Source: a virus. Taken from it: DNA of 64,000 bases. Under the pieces are notes generated by a model that was not told the origin of the DNA, searched no databases, and saw nothing but the letters and a program-made list of their open reading frames with translations. Positions 1 to 4,599 of this stretch are shown in pieces. The position numbers and the translations under genes were made by a program. The stretch is from positions 1 to 64,000 of IMG/VR virus record IMGVR_UViG_3300032334_000315; one strand, written 5' to 3'. The first letter of the stretch is position 1, and every line of letters begins with the position of its first letter.

Positions 1-67
1 GAGGGTGGAATTGCACCACCGGCCTTTTGGGTATGAGCCAAACGAGCTACTACTGCTCCACTCTGCT
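1..67 (-). tRNA. tRNA-Met(CAT), initiator-like, 3' end beyond the window edge
   Basis: Minus strand GCAGAGTGGAGCAGTAGTAGCTCG-TTTGG-CTCATAC-CCAAA; D-arm resembles fMet; T-loop variant GTGCAAT. Confidence 0.8.
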
Positions 68-74
68 TCAACTT

Positions 75-150
75 TGGTGCCGAAGACTGGACTTGAACCA
101 GTGACAATACCCGTATGAAGGGTGCGCTCTACCAACTGAGCTACATCGGC
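75..150 (-). tRNA. tRNA with CAT anticodon (Met or Ile2)
   Basis: Cloverleaf, anticodon loop TTCATAC, GTTCAAGTC, encoded CCA. Confidence 0.9.
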
Positions 151-239
151 AAACTGTTCCCACCGTTAACTGGCTCCATAAGCGCCACGGGTTTGTTTTA
201 CATCGGCTGCCGCACGGTGGGCACACGGTCCGATGGTAG

Positions 240-333
240 TGGTGGGTGAGGTAGGAGTCGAACCTACATTGTTTACCACATAGGGACCGGATTTACAGTC
301 CGGAGATGCACACGCCATAGCATCAACTCACCC
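240..333 (-). tRNA. tRNA-Tyr(GTA)
   Basis: CCGGA-CTGTAAA-TCCGG anticodon arm, long variable arm, CCA. Confidence 0.93.
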
Positions 334-340
334 AATTCTT

Positions 341-757
341 TTATACTTGAACCCAGACTTGACCTTCAAGCCACGCTACGACCTCGTCACGCACGGCTTT
401 TACCGCATCTGGCTTCATAAACTTTTCAATTTTTCCATGCTCATATTTGATGACCATTGAAACAATACGAGGCAAAATATACGTCTTGAACGTACCATTA
501 TCTTTACGACAATGTTCTATCTTTTTGTAAATTCGGCCTTCCATGTATGCGCGAGCGAGATAGGTAGCACGAGCTTCATTGCGAACATCAAAACGACGAT
601 GGCTATTCAATGACTCCCACATGAAACGAACTTTAGTCTCGTCCTTTTGGTGTGTCTTGAGCCATTCAATCTGACGCTTGAGTTTCTGTTCCTCGAAACG
701 AATGACGCCAGCTTCCAATGCGAGATGTTTAGACTTGATCTTTAACTTGATAGACAT
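341..757 (-). CDS. hypothetical basic phage protein (138 aa) downstream of suppressor tRNA and mini-ORF
   Basis: ORF with AAGGA RBS and its own TTGACT-N17-TATAAT promoter; HRRxDVRxEARATYLARAY segment. Confidence 0.85.
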   Translation of the reverse strand: MSIKLKIKSKHLALEAGVIRFEEQKLKRQIEWLKTHQKDETKVRFMWESLNSHRRFDVRNEARATYLARAYMEGRIYKKIEHCRKDNGTFKTYILPRIVSMVIKYEHGKIEKFMKPDAVKAVRDEVVAWLEGQVWVQV

Positions 758-781
758 GTTAGTTTCCTTATTGATGATTAC

Positions 782-810
782 ATTATACGATAGTGATTAT
801 TCAAAGTCAA
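782..810 (-). promoter_or_regulatory. sigma70-type promoter
   Basis: TTGACT-N17-TATAAT upstream of 341..757. Confidence 0.75.
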
Positions 811-819
811 TAAGAAAAT

Positions 820-858
820 TCATGGGGGACGAAAAACCTACAGAAAAAATACCTTCAT
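820..858 (-). CDS. mini-ORF MKVFFL(UAG)VFRPP with in-frame amber codon
   Basis: GGAG 7 nt before ATG AAG GTA TTT TTT CTG TAG GTT TTT CGT CCC CCA TGA; starts 20 nt after the CUA tRNA. Confidence 0.65.
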
Positions 859-878
859 GTTATTACTCCATTATCAGT

Positions 879-952
879 TGGTGATCCTAACGGGACTTGA
901 ACCCGCATTCATCGTTTTAGAGACGACTGCATATCCGCCATGCTCTAGGATC
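879..952 (-). tRNA. amber suppressor tRNA (anticodon CTA)
   Basis: GATCCTA/TAGGATC acceptor, GCAT/ATGC D-stem, GTCGT-CTCTAAA-ACGAT anticodon arm, GCGGG-TTCAAGT-CCCGT, ACCA. Confidence 0.9.
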
Positions 953-960
953 TATTTATA
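953..960 (-). promoter_or_regulatory. T4-type late promoter box TATAAATA
   Basis: Exact gp55 consensus abutting the 5' end of the suppressor tRNA. Confidence 0.6.
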
Positions 961-962
961 AG

Positions 963-1038
963 TGGTACTACCTCCAAGATTCGAACTTGAACTCCGGCGT
1001 CCACAACACCGGGTGCTTACCAATTACACTAAGGTAGC
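963..1038 (-). tRNA. tRNA-His(GTG), A73, no encoded G-1
   Basis: CGGTG-TTGTGGA-CGCCG anticodon arm, acceptor GCTACCT/AGGTAGT, ACCA. Confidence 0.92.
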
Positions 1039-1622
1039 ACAAACTGCTTCTGAATAAGATTCATATTTGTTGTTACTGCCACGCGATCGGTATCGGACTG
1101 ATTATGCGATACTTGATGAACTAACCAACCGGGAAACATAATCATCTGCCCAGCTTTTGGCTTATAGCTGAACACATTATAATGTTCAGGATTAAGACTA
1201 ATCCATCCTAATGTCGATCTGGGATCGAGCAGACGAATGTTTCCGCCTTTATCTCCTACATCCACATAATAAGTGGCTGCAATCGTATTCATTCGATGAT
1301 TATGAAATCTGTATTCTTGACCATATTGACGAAAATTGATCCAACCTCTAGCATGCCTAAAGTAGTCTGGCTTGTATTCCATCTCAAAAAATTCTGTTGC
1401 ATATTTAGCCGCAGATTCCAAAAAGAAATCATGAAGTATGTTTATGCCTTCATTATATCTATGACTCCAAATATTTCTATCTTTTTCATATTCGAAAACG
1501 TCCAAACTACCTTGATCGGCAACTCCTTTAAGATTGCCGTTCAGGATGACTTCATTGATTCTTTCGAAATCTGGTAAATCAAAAATTGCTACCGGTGTTG
1601 AAAACAGATTTAATTTCTGCAT
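1029..1622 (-). CDS. putative 2OG-Fe(II) oxygenase (TIGR02466-like)
   Basis: LFSTPV start, W-N...HNH, YY, DPR, FPGWLVHQV...R motifs. Confidence 0.8.
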   Translation of the reverse strand: MQKLNLFSTPVAIFDLPDFERINEVILNGNLKGVADQGSLDVFEYEKDRNIWSHRYNEGINILHDFFLESAAKYATEFFEMEYKPDYFRHARGWINFRQYGQEYRFHNHRMNTIAATYYVDVGDKGGNIRLLDPRSTLGWISLNPEHYNVFSYKPKAGQMIMFPGWLVHQVSHNQSDTDRVAVTTNMNLIQKQFVLP

Positions 1623-1637
1623 GATATACCTTTAAAT

Positions 1638-1714
1638 TGGTGCCCATAGTAGGACTCGAACCTACAACATTCGGAGTTTGAAACCGACGCCTCTGCCAAT
1701 TGGACTATACGGGC
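1638..1714 (-). tRNA. tRNA-Leu(CAA), short variable arm
   Basis: Leu-type D-arm GTCCAATTGGCAGAGGC, loop TTCAAAC, A73, CCA. Confidence 0.82.
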
Positions 1715-1850
1715 TAATTTTAATGAAGCTTTCTGTGTGAAATGTAATAGTGATACGCTTCACCAACACGCTTCATGTAGACATACATCCAACCACAAAG
1801 CATATAAACAAAATTACCATGTACCGTTTGCATATTAACACCTTTGTTGT

Positions 1851-1927
1851 TGGTGCCCCTGGAGAGATTCGAACTCCCACCACCCGGAACCTAAATCCGG
1901 TGCCTCTACCAGTTGGACTACAGGGGC
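1851..1927 (-). tRNA. tRNA-Leu(TAG), short variable arm
   Basis: CCGGA-TTTAGGT-TCCGG, CCA. Confidence 0.9.
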
Positions 1928-1933
1928 AAACTT

Positions 1934-2008
1934 TGGCGCTTCTGAAGGGAATCGAACCCTCCTCGCCCCTTAGACAGAGGGGTCGCCTCACCAGATGCGT
2001 ACAGAAGC
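1934..2008 (-). tRNA. tRNA-Asp(GTC)
   Basis: CCCCT-CTGTCTA-AGGGG, GCCA end. Confidence 0.92.
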
Positions 2009-2011
2009 AAA

Positions 2012-2201
2012 TTGATATTACGCCAGCATAGCTACAGAATGCCAATGGGAATCGAACCCAACACGCCTCCCCTTAGACCACTACTCTCACAATGCGAGAG
2101 TCAAAGGAATCGAACCTGAATCGGTTTGGGTCTACCAAGTGCTTCTTACGCTTCTGGTTAATTACTCCAGATCGTTAGCAGCTATGCTGGCGTAATATCA
2201 A
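2012..2201 (-). ncRNA. candidate ncRNA closed by a perfect 22-bp stem, containing two TPsiC-like loops
   Basis: Inverted repeat 2012-2033/2180-2201; two GGTTCGATTCC hairpins on the minus strand. Confidence 0.65.
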
Positions 2202-2202
2202 A

Positions 2203-2357
2203 TGCTGGTTACTGCCATCCAGCGTTGCCTTTCCGCGCAACAGGTTCTGAGACAAGACGGTTCAAGCAACTCGGTCTCTTCAGGCGGCCGCAGCCTATAT
2301 CCACCAATCCGGCTTGAACCCAGGTTAGGTGGTGACGCAAAGGATCTCATCCCTTTG
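2203..2357 (-). ncRNA. candidate multi-hairpin ncRNA with 9-bp loop-loop pairing
   Basis: Six short helices; GGTTCAAGC (2259-2267) complementary to GCTTGAACC (2312-2320). Confidence 0.55.
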
Positions 2358-2362
2358 AATTA

Positions 2363-2438
2363 TGGTGCCCCCACGAAGATTCGAACTCCGGACCTACTGA
2401 TTACAAATCAGTTGCTCTACCAGCTGAGCTATAAGGGC
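2363..2438 (-). tRNA. tRNA-Thr(TGT)
   Basis: Cloverleaf, loop TTTGTAA, CCA. Confidence 0.95.
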
Positions 2439-2501
2439 AAAACTAGAGGGATGGTGTTGTGTACACAGGCCTCGCCAAGCCACACCATCCCGTACGCGAT
2501 A

Positions 2502-2578
2502 TGGAGTCCCGTGAGGGAGTCAAACCCCCAACCTTCGGTTTCGTAGACCGATGCTCTATTCAGTTGAGCTAACGAGAC
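2502..2578 (-). tRNA. tRNA-Arg(ACG)
   Basis: TCGGT-CTACGAA-ACCGA, CCA. Confidence 0.92.
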
Positions 2579-2581
2579 AAA

Positions 2582-2657
2582 TGGTGGAGGTAGCCAGAAT
2601 CGAACTGACGACATCCTGCTTGCAAAGCAGGCGCTCTCCCAACTGAGCTATACCCCC
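2582..2657 (-). tRNA. tRNA-Ala(TGC)
   Basis: Loop TTTGCAA, G3:U70, CCA. Confidence 0.95.
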
Positions 2658-2732
2658 TGGTAGTCCGTGACGGGATTGAACCGCCGACCTTCTCCGTGTA
2701 AAGGAGTTGCTCTCCCGCTGAGCTAACGGACC
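2658..2732 (-). tRNA. tRNA-Val(TAC), abuts tRNA-Ala with no spacer
   Basis: Loop TTTACAC, CCA. Confidence 0.94.
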
Positions 2733-2739
2733 ACAAAAT

Positions 2740-2815
2740 TGGCTCCCCCGCGTGGGCTCGAACCACGGACATTCTGATTAACAGTCAGACGCTCTACCAG
2801 CTGAGCTACAGGGAA
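2740..2815 (-). tRNA. tRNA-Asn(GTT)
   Basis: Loop CTGTTAA, GCCA. Confidence 0.94.
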
Positions 2816-2834
2816 TCATTCTTATATATGCATT

Positions 2835-2909
2835 TGGTTGGCACAGAAGGTTACGATCCTTCCACCCCCGTCTTATCAGGACGGTGCTCTACCACTGAGC
2901 TATGCGCCA
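2835..2909 (-). tRNA. tRNA-Ile(GAT)
   Basis: Loop CTGATAA; variant T-loop ATCGTAA; CCA. Confidence 0.88.
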
Positions 2910-2914
2910 CTATT

Positions 2915-2990
2915 TGGTGAACCATGCAGGGATCGAACCTGCGACAAAGAGATTAAGAGTCTCCTGCTCTACCAGCTGAGCTAATGGTCC
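2915..2990 (-). tRNA. tRNA-Lys(CTT)
   Basis: Loop CTCTTAA, CCA. Confidence 0.94.
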
Positions 2991-2995
2991 AAACT

Positions 2996-3072
<77 letters not shown>

Positions 3073-3074
3073 AA

Positions 3075-3274
3075 AACTTGTTAGGAGTGGTGTTATGTTA
3101 TGGATATGGATAGACTGACATACCGTTCGCTTTACTCTGCAACCTTATACATGGGAGCAACCCCACTTTTCGATTACAACTCAGTTTATGCCGTGCCTGC
3201 AGGACAGAGGGCTCCAGGGACTGTGCGCTGCCCAGGAACACTGGGATTTTCCATAACACCACACCTAACAAGTT
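3075..3274 (-). ncRNA. candidate ncRNA closed by a 23-bp stem (one mismatch)
   Basis: Inverted repeat 3075-3097/3252-3274 around a 154-nt interior. Confidence 0.55.
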
Positions 3275-3374
3275 GTTTCTTCTAAAAGAGCTATCTTGCA
3301 TACCCCATACGAGATATCTTGTAGCTGCCACTAACGATGTGGCAGCATCGCATAGCTCTTTTAGAAGAAACAAC
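3272..3374 (-). ncRNA. candidate ncRNA closed by a perfect 23-bp stem
   Basis: Inverted repeat 3272-3294/3352-3374; inner GCTGCCAC/GTGGCAGC hairpin. Confidence 0.55.
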
Positions 3375-3478
3375 CGTTACACCCACGATGGGGTAAGAAT
3401 CCCTACTCAGAGAGTACGAATCCCCGGTGTTTCTTTTTCTTTACCAGCAATGTCAAACAGCGTATTCTCTATTCTTAT

Positions 3479-3507
3479 ATAGTAGCAGGTTGGCACTCTT
3501 TTGTCAA
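3479..3507 (-). promoter_or_regulatory. sigma70-type promoter for the tRNA/ncRNA array
   Basis: TTGACA-N17-TACTAT. Confidence 0.75.
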
Positions 3508-3517
3508 CCACTCTTTT

Positions 3518-3592
3518 TGGCAGAGCGTAGGGTAATTGAAACCCTTTCTCCAGGTTGAGAACCTAGCGTCCTAACCAATAGACGAACGCTCC
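3518..3592 (-). tRNA. tRNA-Glu(CTC)
   Basis: CTAGG-TTCTCAA-CCTGG, GCCA. Confidence 0.88.
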
Positions 3593-3598
3593 AAAACT

Positions 3599-3676
3599 TG
3601 GTCCTCCGTATCGGATTTGAACCGATGATCTCCGCGCTTGAAAGGCGGGTATGTTGGACCGCTACACCAACGGAGG
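3599..3676 (-). tRNA. tRNA-Glu(TTC)
   Basis: Loop CTTTCAA, irregular anticodon stem, CCA. Confidence 0.85.
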
Positions 3677-3681
3677 ATATA

Positions 3682-3758
3682 TGGTGGACTCTCTGGGACT
3701 CGAACCCAGCACCAACGGTTTAAAAGACCGCTGCTCTAACCAACTGAGCTAAGAGTCC
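3682..3758 (-). tRNA. tRNA-Lys(TTT)
   Basis: GCGGT-CTTTTAA-ACCGT, CCA. Confidence 0.94.
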
Positions 3759-3765
3759 GAAATCT

Positions 3766-4020
3766 TTACGGGATATGGTTCCCGCAAACCTGACGCTCTA
3801 CGTACCCGTGAGGAGTGCGATTCCACACAGTAGCACACCGCGGGCGTCGGAGTGGTGCATAATACGGCCTAGGAACAGGCTGCGGTATATACACTGGCTC
3901 CTGCGCGATATACCGCGGAGGCGGAACGTAAACGTCCATGGTAGGTCGAGGACCATACACGGTAGCATTGCAGCCCGCGAGCGCGAGGGCTAATGCTGAG
4001 ACGGCTGCAATGCGGATCAT
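3766..4020 (-). CDS. proline-rich lipoprotein
   Basis: Signal peptide with lipobox LAGC; Pro/Tyr-rich body. Confidence 0.75.
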   Translation of the reverse strand: MIRIAAVSALALALAGCNATVYGPRPTMDVYVPPPRYIAQEPVYIPQPVPRPYYAPLRRPRCATVWNRTPHGYVERQVCGNHIP

Positions 4021-4382
4021 GCTACACTCCATTCCATTTCATCTTCGGTTTCAATCCATTCGGAACCGTCATACTCTCGTAGAATGTACCGCGTACCAGG
4101 TGCTAACTCACGGATGCACAGGTCAGCACAATAACCAGACGCAGCCTTACCAAGTTCCTCTACGACCTGAGCGAGAACAGGATCTGTCCGCTCAATATCC
4201 CATTCATTGAAAAAGTCACCCTCATTCATTACGCTAGTACCGATACGGAATCGGACATTGCGAAAACTAACTTCGGACTCTTCTTCGGTAAAAGGAACAC
4301 CCTTTATCTCGAGGTACCTACGAATGGCAGCGTCAGATAAACCAAAGCCACCATAACAACCATTATAAACGATCTTAGTCAC
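4017..4382 (-). CDS. hypothetical phage protein
   Basis: KIVYNGCYGGFGLS...ERTDPVL...EYDGSE pattern. Confidence 0.8.
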   Translation of the reverse strand: MTKIVYNGCYGGFGLSDAAIRRYLEIKGVPFTEEESEVSFRNVRFRIGTSVMNEGDFFNEWDIERTDPVLAQVVEELGKAASGYCADLCIRELAPGTRYILREYDGSEWIETEDEMEWSVA

Positions 4383-4398
4383 CTTGTCAACCTCTTTG

Positions 4399-4599
4399 TT
4401 AGTGGCGGTCGCGGAAGGATTCGAACCCTCGGCCCACGGAGTAGAAATCCGTTGCTCTATCCAGCTGAGCTACGCGACCTTTACGCTTGTAGCCTTTGCG
4501 AGATGCAACGACACGAGCATGGTATTTAGTAGTAGCCAAATCAATCGCAATCGGGTTACGCTTTGATCCGCTTGAGTTTACCGATGATTTCCCAGTCAT
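4399..4599 (-). CDS. ArfA-like small basic protein; ORF runs on through tRNA-Arg
   Basis: NPIAIDLATTKYHARVVASRKGYKRK resembles the ArfA core; first 40 codons precede the tRNA. Confidence 0.55.
   Translation of the reverse strand: MTGKSSVNSSGSKRNPIAIDLATTKYHARVVASRKGYKRKGRVAQLDRATDFYSVGRGFESFRDRH
4403..4479 (-). tRNA. tRNA-Arg(TCT)
   Basis: ACGGA-TTTCTAC-TCCGT, GCCA. Confidence 0.94.

Follow-up and report, generated by a model that had tools for sequence, protein, structure and literature searches.

A putative translational attenuator gated by stop codon suppression in the tRNA array of a T4-like lake phage and its relatives

We analyzed a window of 64,000 nucleotides (nt), which comprises the first 64 kb of IMG/VR virus record IMGVR_UViG_3300032334_000315. 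The whole record (hereafter G000; 154,689 bp, ~93% complete) is the genome of a T4-like lake myovirus, in which we found DNA polymerase, ribonucleotide reductase, a gp46-like SbcC protein and a helicase. Bases 1-4500 of this genome carry, on the minus strand, an array of transfer RNA (tRNA) genes identified by ARAGORN. Embedded in the array is a compact cassette that consists of a late promoter box, a tRNA with the amber-suppressor anticodon CUA, a short leader open reading frame (ORF) with an in-frame TAG and a Pro-Pro-stop end, a hairpin, and the gene for a basic protein of 138 amino acids (aa). Comparison of this cassette with related phage loci suggests that it is a translational attenuator, in which production of the 138-aa protein would depend on suppression of the stop codon in the leader.

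Organization of the cassette

The cassette and the tRNA that follows it contain the following features, given in the order of transcription:

960-953, minus strand: T4-type late-promoter box TATAAATA, directly adjoining the tRNA at its first base (sequence read)
952-879, minus strand: tRNA with anticodon CUA, an amber suppressor (ARAGORN; Rfam RF00005, 52.8 bits against a gathering threshold of 29)
869-866, minus strand: Shine-Dalgarno (SD) sequence of the leader, GGAG, separated by 7 nt from the ATG (sequence read)
858-820, minus strand: leader mini-ORF of 13 codons, namely ATG, five codons, TAG, Val-Phe-Arg, Pro-Pro and TGA
840-838, minus strand: in-frame TAG of the leader, codon 7
828-823, minus strand: Pro-Pro of the leader
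822-820, minus strand: terminal TGA of the leader
818-807, minus strand: 5' arm of the hairpin, beginning 1 nt past the leader stop codon (RNAfold of 822-755)
810-782, minus strand: sigma70-like promoter TTGACT-17-TATAAT, inside the hairpin (11/12 match to the consensus)
774-763, minus strand: 3' arm of the hairpin, which holds the SD (AAGGAA) of the 138-aa gene (RNAfold)
757-341, minus strand: gene for the 138-aa basic protein, isoelectric point 9.9 (ORF call)
240-333, minus strand: tRNA-Tyr, 94 nt, 7 nt past the stop codon of the 138-aa gene (ARAGORN)

The late box, the CUA tRNA, the GGAG-led mini-ORF with its TAG and the 138-aa ORF had all been described in an earlier reading of the same DNA (the original prediction), and each was recovered at the positions listed here, on the minus strand. 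The leader ends 62 nt before the start of the 138-aa gene, and between the two lies the hairpin, which that reading had missed and which would be the component that makes the cassette a switch. Because the hairpin is not followed by a U-tract, it is not a transcription terminator.

The suppressor tRNA has a 7-nt anticodon loop with U33, an encoded CCA and the discriminator A73, and compensatory changes are apparent in its D stem and anticodon stem when it is compared with the near relatives L003-L005 (L-numbers denote the fetched loci of relatives, and G007 is the incomplete genome of L060). ARAGORN labels this molecule 'tRNA-Pyl (cta)' because of its anticodon only. Its nearest neighbors in a set of 259 phage tRNAs do not agree on an isotype (Thr, Arg, Leu, Lys and others). 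A pyrrolysine system was considered and ruled out given the absence of PylS from G000 (no match to TIGR02367 in the 93% complete genome).

The presence of the suppressor is not accompanied by recoding of the genome. Standard-code ORFs, by crude gene calls, cover 92% of G000, and the 162 called genes end with TAA in 98 cases, TGA in 45 and TAG in 19. Long in-frame extensions past a TAG were detected in two cases, and both turned out to be the next gene, with its own SD and ATG. Given the coverage in the standard code, the TAG-ended genes and the lack of any gene interrupted by TAG, G000 is not recoded genome-wide; the statement to this effect in the original prediction, that about a dozen genes of the window end in TAG and no long gene is broken by it, also holds. 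An in-frame-TAG mini-ORF with an SD and Pro-Pro occurs in G000 only once, compared with 0.05 per genome expected from shuffles. Searches of G000 returned no match for a release-factor domain and no match to PF01981 (Pth2); a PTH2 gene is present in two jumbo relatives, 26 kb and ~160 kb away from the module, with no such leader adjoining it.

Conservation of the tRNA-leader-gene module

Homologues of the 138-aa protein, at 42-99% identity, were found in ~108 distinct phage loci, two of these in cultured phages. We fetched 80 viral-contig loci and 80 metagenome loci, plus the relatives of one special locus. A tRNA with CUA lies upstream of the gene, on the same strand, in 72 of the 80 viral-contig loci, usually at a distance of ~105-125 nt; the 72 include one with UCA and three in which CUA is retained in an odd loop. 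The other eight are a mixed lot: two are cut by the contig end, in one (L026) the tRNA was missed by ARAGORN and found by Rfam, the tRNA is downstream in one and 2.5 kb upstream in another, CUA is retained within an odd 7-nt loop in one, one belongs to an incomplete genome, and one is a truly leaderless member located after tRNA-Val. Both cultured phages that encode a homologue, Synechococcus phage BUCT-ZZ01 and roseophage DSS3_MAL1, possess the full module.

The leaders, 108 of which are distinct, are built to one plan: an SD and a start codon come first, then 0-10 codons, TAG, mostly 2-6 further codons, Pro-Pro and, usually, a stop codon. In nearly all loci, the start codon of the leader is preceded by an SD-like core. 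The sequence of the spacer between the tRNA and the gene is not conserved, but its plan is: all 43 tRNA-to-gene spacers of <=130 nt show the leader pattern, compared with 0.16% of shuffled spacers. The SD with the start codon, the TAG and the Pro-Pro always share one frame, and 44-62 nt consistently separate Pro-Pro-stop from the gene start. Thus, the homologues keep the CUA tRNA together with a short ORF that contains an internal TAG and ends in Pro-Pro, in agreement with the original prediction, which had proposed this comparison as a test.

Pro-Pro is the most conserved feature of the leader, being present in 108 of the 108 parsed leaders. It is encoded by all four Pro codons (CCA 50, CCT 28, CCG 20, CCC 18), which implies selection on the amino acids. 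Within the window lineage (63-99% protein identity), synonymous variation affects the codons for Lys, Phe, Leu, Val and Arg as well as both Pro codons, the residue is altered at only three positions of the leader, and the terminal stop alternates between TGA and TAA. The codons after the TAG are therefore conserved at the amino-acid level, as judged by the synonymous changes and the use of four Pro codons; the original prediction had set this point beforehand as a check on itself.

These patterns of variation bear directly on an explanation that involves no translation of the leader at all, under which the TAG and CCNCCN would be motifs of an untranslated RNA element, for example, an anti-SD sequence, and the ORF would be accidental. 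In some loci, such as L013 and L014, base-pairing with the SD of the gene is possible for CCUCC-like Pro codons, as such an element would require. Nevertheless, the placement of the start, TAG and Pro-Pro in one frame, the occurrence of all four bases in the third positions of the Pro codons, the synonymous changes in the window lineage and the co-occurrence of TGA with UCA, described next, make this explanation extremely improbable.

The identity of the internal stop codon follows that of the anticodon. In locus L077, the place of the suppressor is occupied by a tRNA with UCA, and the leader carries TGA where the others have TAG; in the nearest relatives of this locus (62% identity), the identical first two codons are followed by TAG, and the leader is paired with tRNA-CUA. 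The tRNA itself appears to be exchangeable: L027 and L047 encode an identical leader peptide next to unrelated CUA tRNA bodies, suggesting that what selection preserves is suppression and not any one tRNA or amino acid. The internal stop is followed by A or G in ~93% of the loci and in none by T; a purine after UAG favors amber suppression. The codon before the internal stop varies freely and can encode L, I, G, A, S, T, Y or M, or be the start codon itself. Within the limits of what comparison of genomes can demonstrate, the linkage, order and spacing of the parts, the reading of codons through the stop and the match between stop codon and anticodon can be considered established.

The original prediction had also raised the possibility that the read-through peptide is a product with a special residue, with the 138-aa protein charging or modifying the tRNA. 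The tight linkage of the tRNA and the protein would fit this scenario, as would the 'Pyl' label at face value. The leader peptides, however, are not conserved, and both their sequence and their length vary freely, with 1-10 codons before the stop and a start codon followed directly by TAG in some cases. Besides, PylS is missing, the identical leaders are served by non-homologous CUA tRNAs, and the all-helical 138-aa protein matches no aminoacyl-tRNA synthetase or tRNA-modifying fold or family (see below). We consider this scenario very improbable, and the peptide with a special residue finds no support.

Several variants of the leader were observed. In L111, the leader, ~110 nt upstream of the gene start at 601, contains two in-frame TAGs followed by Arg-Glu-Pro-Pro-stop. 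A long form of the leader is present in L015 (1177-1440) and L060 (1195-1449), and also in L108, L109, L112, L121, L126, L149 and L169. It begins with Met-Ser-(x)-TAG, continues in frame into a conserved domain of ~80 aa, ends in (Ala/Val/Met)-Pro-Pro-stop, and is followed by the same hairpin. The ~80-aa domain has no match in Pfam or PHROGs. The phages with the long form would make a real small protein only through read-through.

The suppressor tRNA and its surroundings vary as well. Non-canonical anticodon loops occur at the suppressor position in L031 (522-597), L064 (1242-1317), L071 (886-959) and L052 (1270-1345). Such loops, e.g., CCCUAA (6 nt) or CCCCUAA (without U33), still hold CUA; the ARAGORN output for these tRNAs is '???(ct)' or Arg(cct). 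Of the four odd-loop tRNAs, three lie beside leaders in which TAG directly follows the start codon, and the leader of L071 begins with Met-Met-TAG. In L026, L027, L030, L047 and L070, an extra RNA of ~130-230 nt is inserted between tRNA-CUA and the leader, and inserts different from this one are present in L048/L064, L062 and L080. The extra RNA gives the impression of a conserved, structured element, in which L027 and L047 differ by apparently compensatory changes; the search of the tRNA-leader inserts against Rfam detected no family either at the gathering threshold or at E<=0.5. By analogy, this insert could be a processing element similar to the tRNA-adjacent theta ribozymes (PMC10879173).

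The hairpin and the Pro-Pro end of the leader

The hairpin is present in nearly all loci, and its 5' arm begins within -3 to +4 nt of the point where Pro-Pro(-stop) ends. The sequences of the arms vary from locus to locus, and the mean z-score against shuffles is -2.6. In a partition-function model of 58 loci, the median probability that the SD of the gene is unpaired is 0.03 in the free messenger RNA (mRNA) and 0.02 when a ribosome occupies the internal stop, compared with 0.67 when the ribosome holds the second Pro codon in its P site; these values are thermodynamic predictions of SD masking. In the same model, the 5' arm falls inside the footprint of a ribosome held at the Pro-Pro/stop.

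A stop codon directly follows Pro-Pro in 94 of the 108 leaders, and Pro-Pro is preceded mostly by Arg, Lys or His. A C-terminal proline is well established to slow termination and to lead to SsrA tagging. The remaining 14 leaders have a sense codon after Pro-Pro, and 10 of these 14 contain R-x-P-P (RDPP, RSPP or RGPP), a motif found in only 9 of the 94 stop-ended leaders (Fisher p 1.7e-6). RAPP-like motifs arrest elongation on their own (PMC10951233, PMC12992588), so that the enrichment of R-x-P-P in the stop-less leaders fits an autonomous arrest of this type. In the stop-less leaders, moreover, the register of the hairpin tracks Pro-Pro, which points to a pause at Pro-Pro itself.

A programmed stall might not be needed if the leader and the gene were simply coupled, that is, if the ribosome that reads through the TAG unwound the hairpin in passing or reinitiated ~60 nt downstream, with Pro-Pro being kept for some other reason. 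Coupling via unwinding of a hairpin is common in phage operons, and the hairpin sits within the 44-62 nt between the leader stop and the gene start. Such coupling is difficult to reconcile with the retention of Pro-Pro in 108 of 108 leaders while the third positions are free and with a hairpin register that follows Pro-Pro rather than the stop, and the enrichment of R-x-P-P where the stop is missing makes sense only if pausing at this site matters. We regard coupling without a stall as improbable.

The family of the 138-aa protein

The 138-aa gene is nearly always the lone gene within a phage tRNA array. An exhaustive profile search (E<=0.001) delineated a phage-only family of 2550 cluster representatives (clusters at 50% identity), and homologues from metagenomes number in the hundreds. 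The members are small, stand-alone, basic proteins with an invariant N-terminus and an invariant helix that carries His-Arg ... Arg-Asn-Glu-x-Arg-Ala-Thr; no longer or fused forms of the family were found. No copy was detected in 185,579 bacterial and archaeal species genomes (one genome each).

The AlphaFold2 model of the window protein, built from a 27-sequence alignment, is all-helical, with a predicted local distance difference test (pLDDT) score of 85, and consists of a long helical hairpin and two more helices. Neither the 138-aa protein nor ten diverse members of the family match any entry in Pfam or PHROGs, and a profile search of PDB yielded no match for the 138-aa protein. Comparison of the model with PDB using Foldseek found nothing at E<=0.001, and the best hit in the wide search with VIA-align (Z 7.6) was a generic helical hairpin, under the noise level for helical proteins. 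The matches in BFVD were limited to uncharacterized homologues; in the ESM Atlas, all results of the shape search were under a template modeling (TM) score of 0.5, and the feature search gave no usable match. The suggestion in the original prediction that the 138-aa protein is a tRNA-charging enzyme thus finds no support, this being a small, all-helical protein with no synthetase-like or otherwise informative fold match.

A complex of the 138-aa protein with release factor 1 (RF1) of Synechococcus elongatus was predicted with a score of 0.01, a result that counts neither for nor against an interaction. In SecM-SecA, MifM-YidC, prfB and ArfA-tmRNA (transfer-messenger RNA), the regulated product acts on the quantity that is sensed. 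By analogy with such systems, our guess would be that the 138-aa protein acts on UAG decoding or clears its by-products.

Promoters

The coding (minus) strand of G000 contains 20 copies of TATAAATA, compared with a single copy on the plus strand. In the compared loci, this motif is found <=40 nt upstream of 13 of the 82 distinct suppressor tRNAs and 10 of the 302 other tRNAs (Fisher p 1.5e-4), and 12 of these 13 copies are located 0-6 nt from the tRNA start. The strand bias and the enrichment indicate that the late box is probably real, and the module is probably under late control in some lineages.

The original prediction also gave the 138-aa gene its own sigma70 promoter. This assignment is right for the window lineage, where both sigma70-like hexamers are kept in L012, L103, L105 and L107 despite the differing sequence of the loop, and L103 and L107 carry the perfect consensus. 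An internal sigma70 promoter is not part of the general design: as such it was tried and rejected, with a best-match score of 7.75 across 53 loci versus 7.41 in shuffled sequences. In the window phage, the internal promoter suggests that the protein may be ungated early and gated only on transcripts started upstream.

Proposed mechanism and its weighing

Taken together, these observations lead us to propose, with a probability of about 75%, that the cassette is a suppression-gated translational attenuator. The tRNA(CUA) would be made by the phage; directly downstream, on the same strand, are the leader with its UAG and the hairpin that would hide the SD. In the OFF state, RF1 would win at the UAG, the ribosome would exit ~20 nt before the hairpin, and the gene would stay masked. 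In the ON state, the suppressor would win, and the ribosome would translate five further codons and be held at Arg-Pro-Pro-stop. The footprint of the held ribosome would then cover the 5' arm of the hairpin, freeing the SD and allowing a second ribosome to start the 138-aa protein. Because the gate is set by the contest at the UAG, the output would report the ratio of charged suppressor tRNA to RF1 activity. The core of the original prediction, a sensor or switch tied to the 138-aa gene, in which R-P-P is reached only if the suppressor beats RF1, has thus gained comparative support.

Which side of this ratio varies during infection is a separate issue. The tRNA is always encoded in cis, so the tRNA supply might be constant, and the readout could be a host quantity, either RF1 activity or the general capacity for translation (charging, EF-P, tmRNA load). 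EF-P and rescue systems affect stalling at Pro-Pro as well, and tmRNA genes are present in this phage, in BUCT-ZZ01 and in the G007 phage. Host sensing of this kind would shift the emphasis only, with the same mechanism and the ratio being read out either way. The T4-type late box that abuts the tRNA in 16% of the lineages, and the need for the tRNA to accumulate before it can act, point rather to timing set by the phage, so we assign host sensing a low probability.

The permuted tmRNA of G000, with the tag ANDNAPISYALAA, is encoded at 139301-139690 (minus strand), outside the window. The other tmRNA genes, located at 2385-2803 in L087 and 18978-19299 in L095, are those of Synechococcus phage BUCT-ZZ01, in which this gene lies ~500 nt downstream of the module, and of the G007 phage. 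A link between the tmRNA and the leader is conceivable, Pro-Pro-stop ends being classic substrates of SsrA tagging.

Several points weigh against the proposed attenuator. The main caveat is that transcripts from the internal promoter would lack the 5' arm of the hairpin and so would escape the gate in the window lineage. Stalling at Pro-Pro, repression by the hairpin, and expression and charging of the tRNA are all inferred from sequence. The fold model leaves the SD only partly masked in 14 of the 58 loci. Host EF-P may relieve Pro-Pro pauses, and the R-P-P-stop of the window leader differs from the well-studied RAPP/RGPP motif. The covariation of TGA with UCA is known from one lineage only. 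Some members of the family have no leader or a degenerate one: L045/L148 are leaderless, located 22 nt after tRNA-Val; in L165, the gene starts at 601, 23 nt after tRNA-CUA (503-577), with no leader and no hairpin; and in L174, the leader is degenerate. The leaderless members imply that the protein is usable without the gate. L060/G007 has the leader and no CUA tRNA in the 40 kb examined of this incomplete genome.

If the 138-aa protein does act back on decoding, the attenuator would be part of a closed feedback controller, in which the protein made upon read-through damps the suppressor, counters RF1, or clears ribosomes or peptidyl-tRNAs. We offer this extension tentatively and deem it unlikely.

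Other features of the tRNA array

Upstream of the cassette, a gene for a 2-oxoglutarate (2OG)-Fe(II) oxygenase spans positions 1029-1622 on the minus strand (PF13759 at 9.8e-18), and its terminal TAG falls within the first 10 bases of the downstream tRNA-His (963-1038, minus strand). On the other side, tRNA-Tyr is separated from tRNA-Met by a spacer of 89 nt (around 155-235, minus strand).

The tRNA at 3599-3676 (minus strand) is labeled by ARAGORN as 'SeC (tca)', i.e., an opal suppressor. Its nearest neighbor among the fetched tRNAs is tRNA-Glu(UUC). If the anticodon stem is moved by one base, the loop becomes CUUUCAA with the anticodon UUC, and there is one C-C mismatch in either register. 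This tRNA is thus probably tRNA-Glu(UUC), not a tRNA with UCA. No TGA-type leader that could partner it was found in G000.

Implications and comparison with known systems

The module appears to be a natural sensor of stop-codon suppression that, most likely, exposes the translation start signal of the downstream gene, and it is apparently unpublished: full-text literature searches turned up no account of a phage suppressor tRNA accompanied by an amber-gated leader. Non-recoded phages commonly encode suppressor tRNAs of puzzling purpose, and the module offers a conserved target for them, a single private leader ORF. Leader peptides are known to exert control in response to antibiotics, amino acids and secretion; the module would be the first natural example in which the input is a dedicated tRNA reading through a stop codon. 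Should the feedback controller prove true, the cassette would be a self-regulating, portable suppression unit in a phage with the standard code, providing a function for otherwise unexplained suppressor tRNAs and a plausible stepping stone to full TAG recoding. In practical terms, this would be a natural amber-suppression sensor of ~120 nt, usable in genetic-code-expansion work, and the large phage-only family of 2550 clusters is marked as tied to translation control. Cultured carriers with tractable hosts are at hand, namely BUCT-ZZ01 (Synechococcus elongatus PCC 7942) and DSS3_MAL1 (Ruegeria).

In its layout, the module resembles the ermC/ermB, cat and cmlA attenuators, in which a short SD-led leader precedes a hairpin that hides the SD of the gene, a held ribosome opens this hairpin, and control is translational, without a terminator. 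The stall in these attenuators, however, involves an antibiotic-bound ribosome, whereas in the phage leader, reaching the stall site would require read-through of a stop codon by the neighboring tRNA.

Another likeness is to ApdA, ApdP, ApcA, SecM and MifM (PMC10951233, PMC12992588, PMC10987492), with which the leaders share a C-terminal (R)-x-Pro-Pro in a small upstream ORF. The subclass of phage leaders with R-G/S/D/E-P-P can dispense with the stop codon, and a feedback logic would be expected. Unlike these arrest peptides, the phage leaders are far shorter (down to 7 codons), lack a secretion signal, and would take stop-codon suppression, rather than protein export, as their input. The window leader ends in F-R-P-P-stop and does not contain the R-A/G-P-P core, and Arg at position -2 (RG, RS, RD, RE or RP before the final Pro-Pro) is found in only about 19 of the 108 leaders. 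Thus, the window leader would work like a RAPP/RGPP arrest peptide but is not a member of that class.

The prfB gene, which encodes RF2, likewise uses an early in-frame stop to sense how efficient termination at that codon is. In prfB, the product of which is the release factor itself, the ribosome escapes by a +1 frameshift that relies on a slippery codon and an internal SD; in the phage leader, a suppressor tRNA would read through the stop in frame, the codons past the stop keep the zero frame, the pre-stop codon is not conserved, and there is no release-factor gene in G000. In attenuation of the trp, his and leu operons, leader codons similarly report on the availability of one charged tRNA. 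These operons sense scarcity of a host tRNA and act on transcription termination, whereas the phage element would sense the presence of a phage tRNA and act on translation initiation.

Recoded phages, such as the crAss-like and Lak phages (bioRxiv 10.1101/2021.08.26.457843; PMC10879173), also combine a phage tRNA(CUA) with a standard-code host, and the idea that suppression serves as a timing device has been raised for them. G000, in contrast, is not recoded, and the only in-frame TAG found in it is that of the 13-codon leader. A further parallel comes from synthetic amber switches (PMC6412442), the output of which depends on a suppressor tRNA reading an in-frame UAG. Those switches are engineered, with the UAG placed within the gene itself, whereas in the phage module, the UAG resides in the leader, and read-through would be converted into unmasking of the SD.

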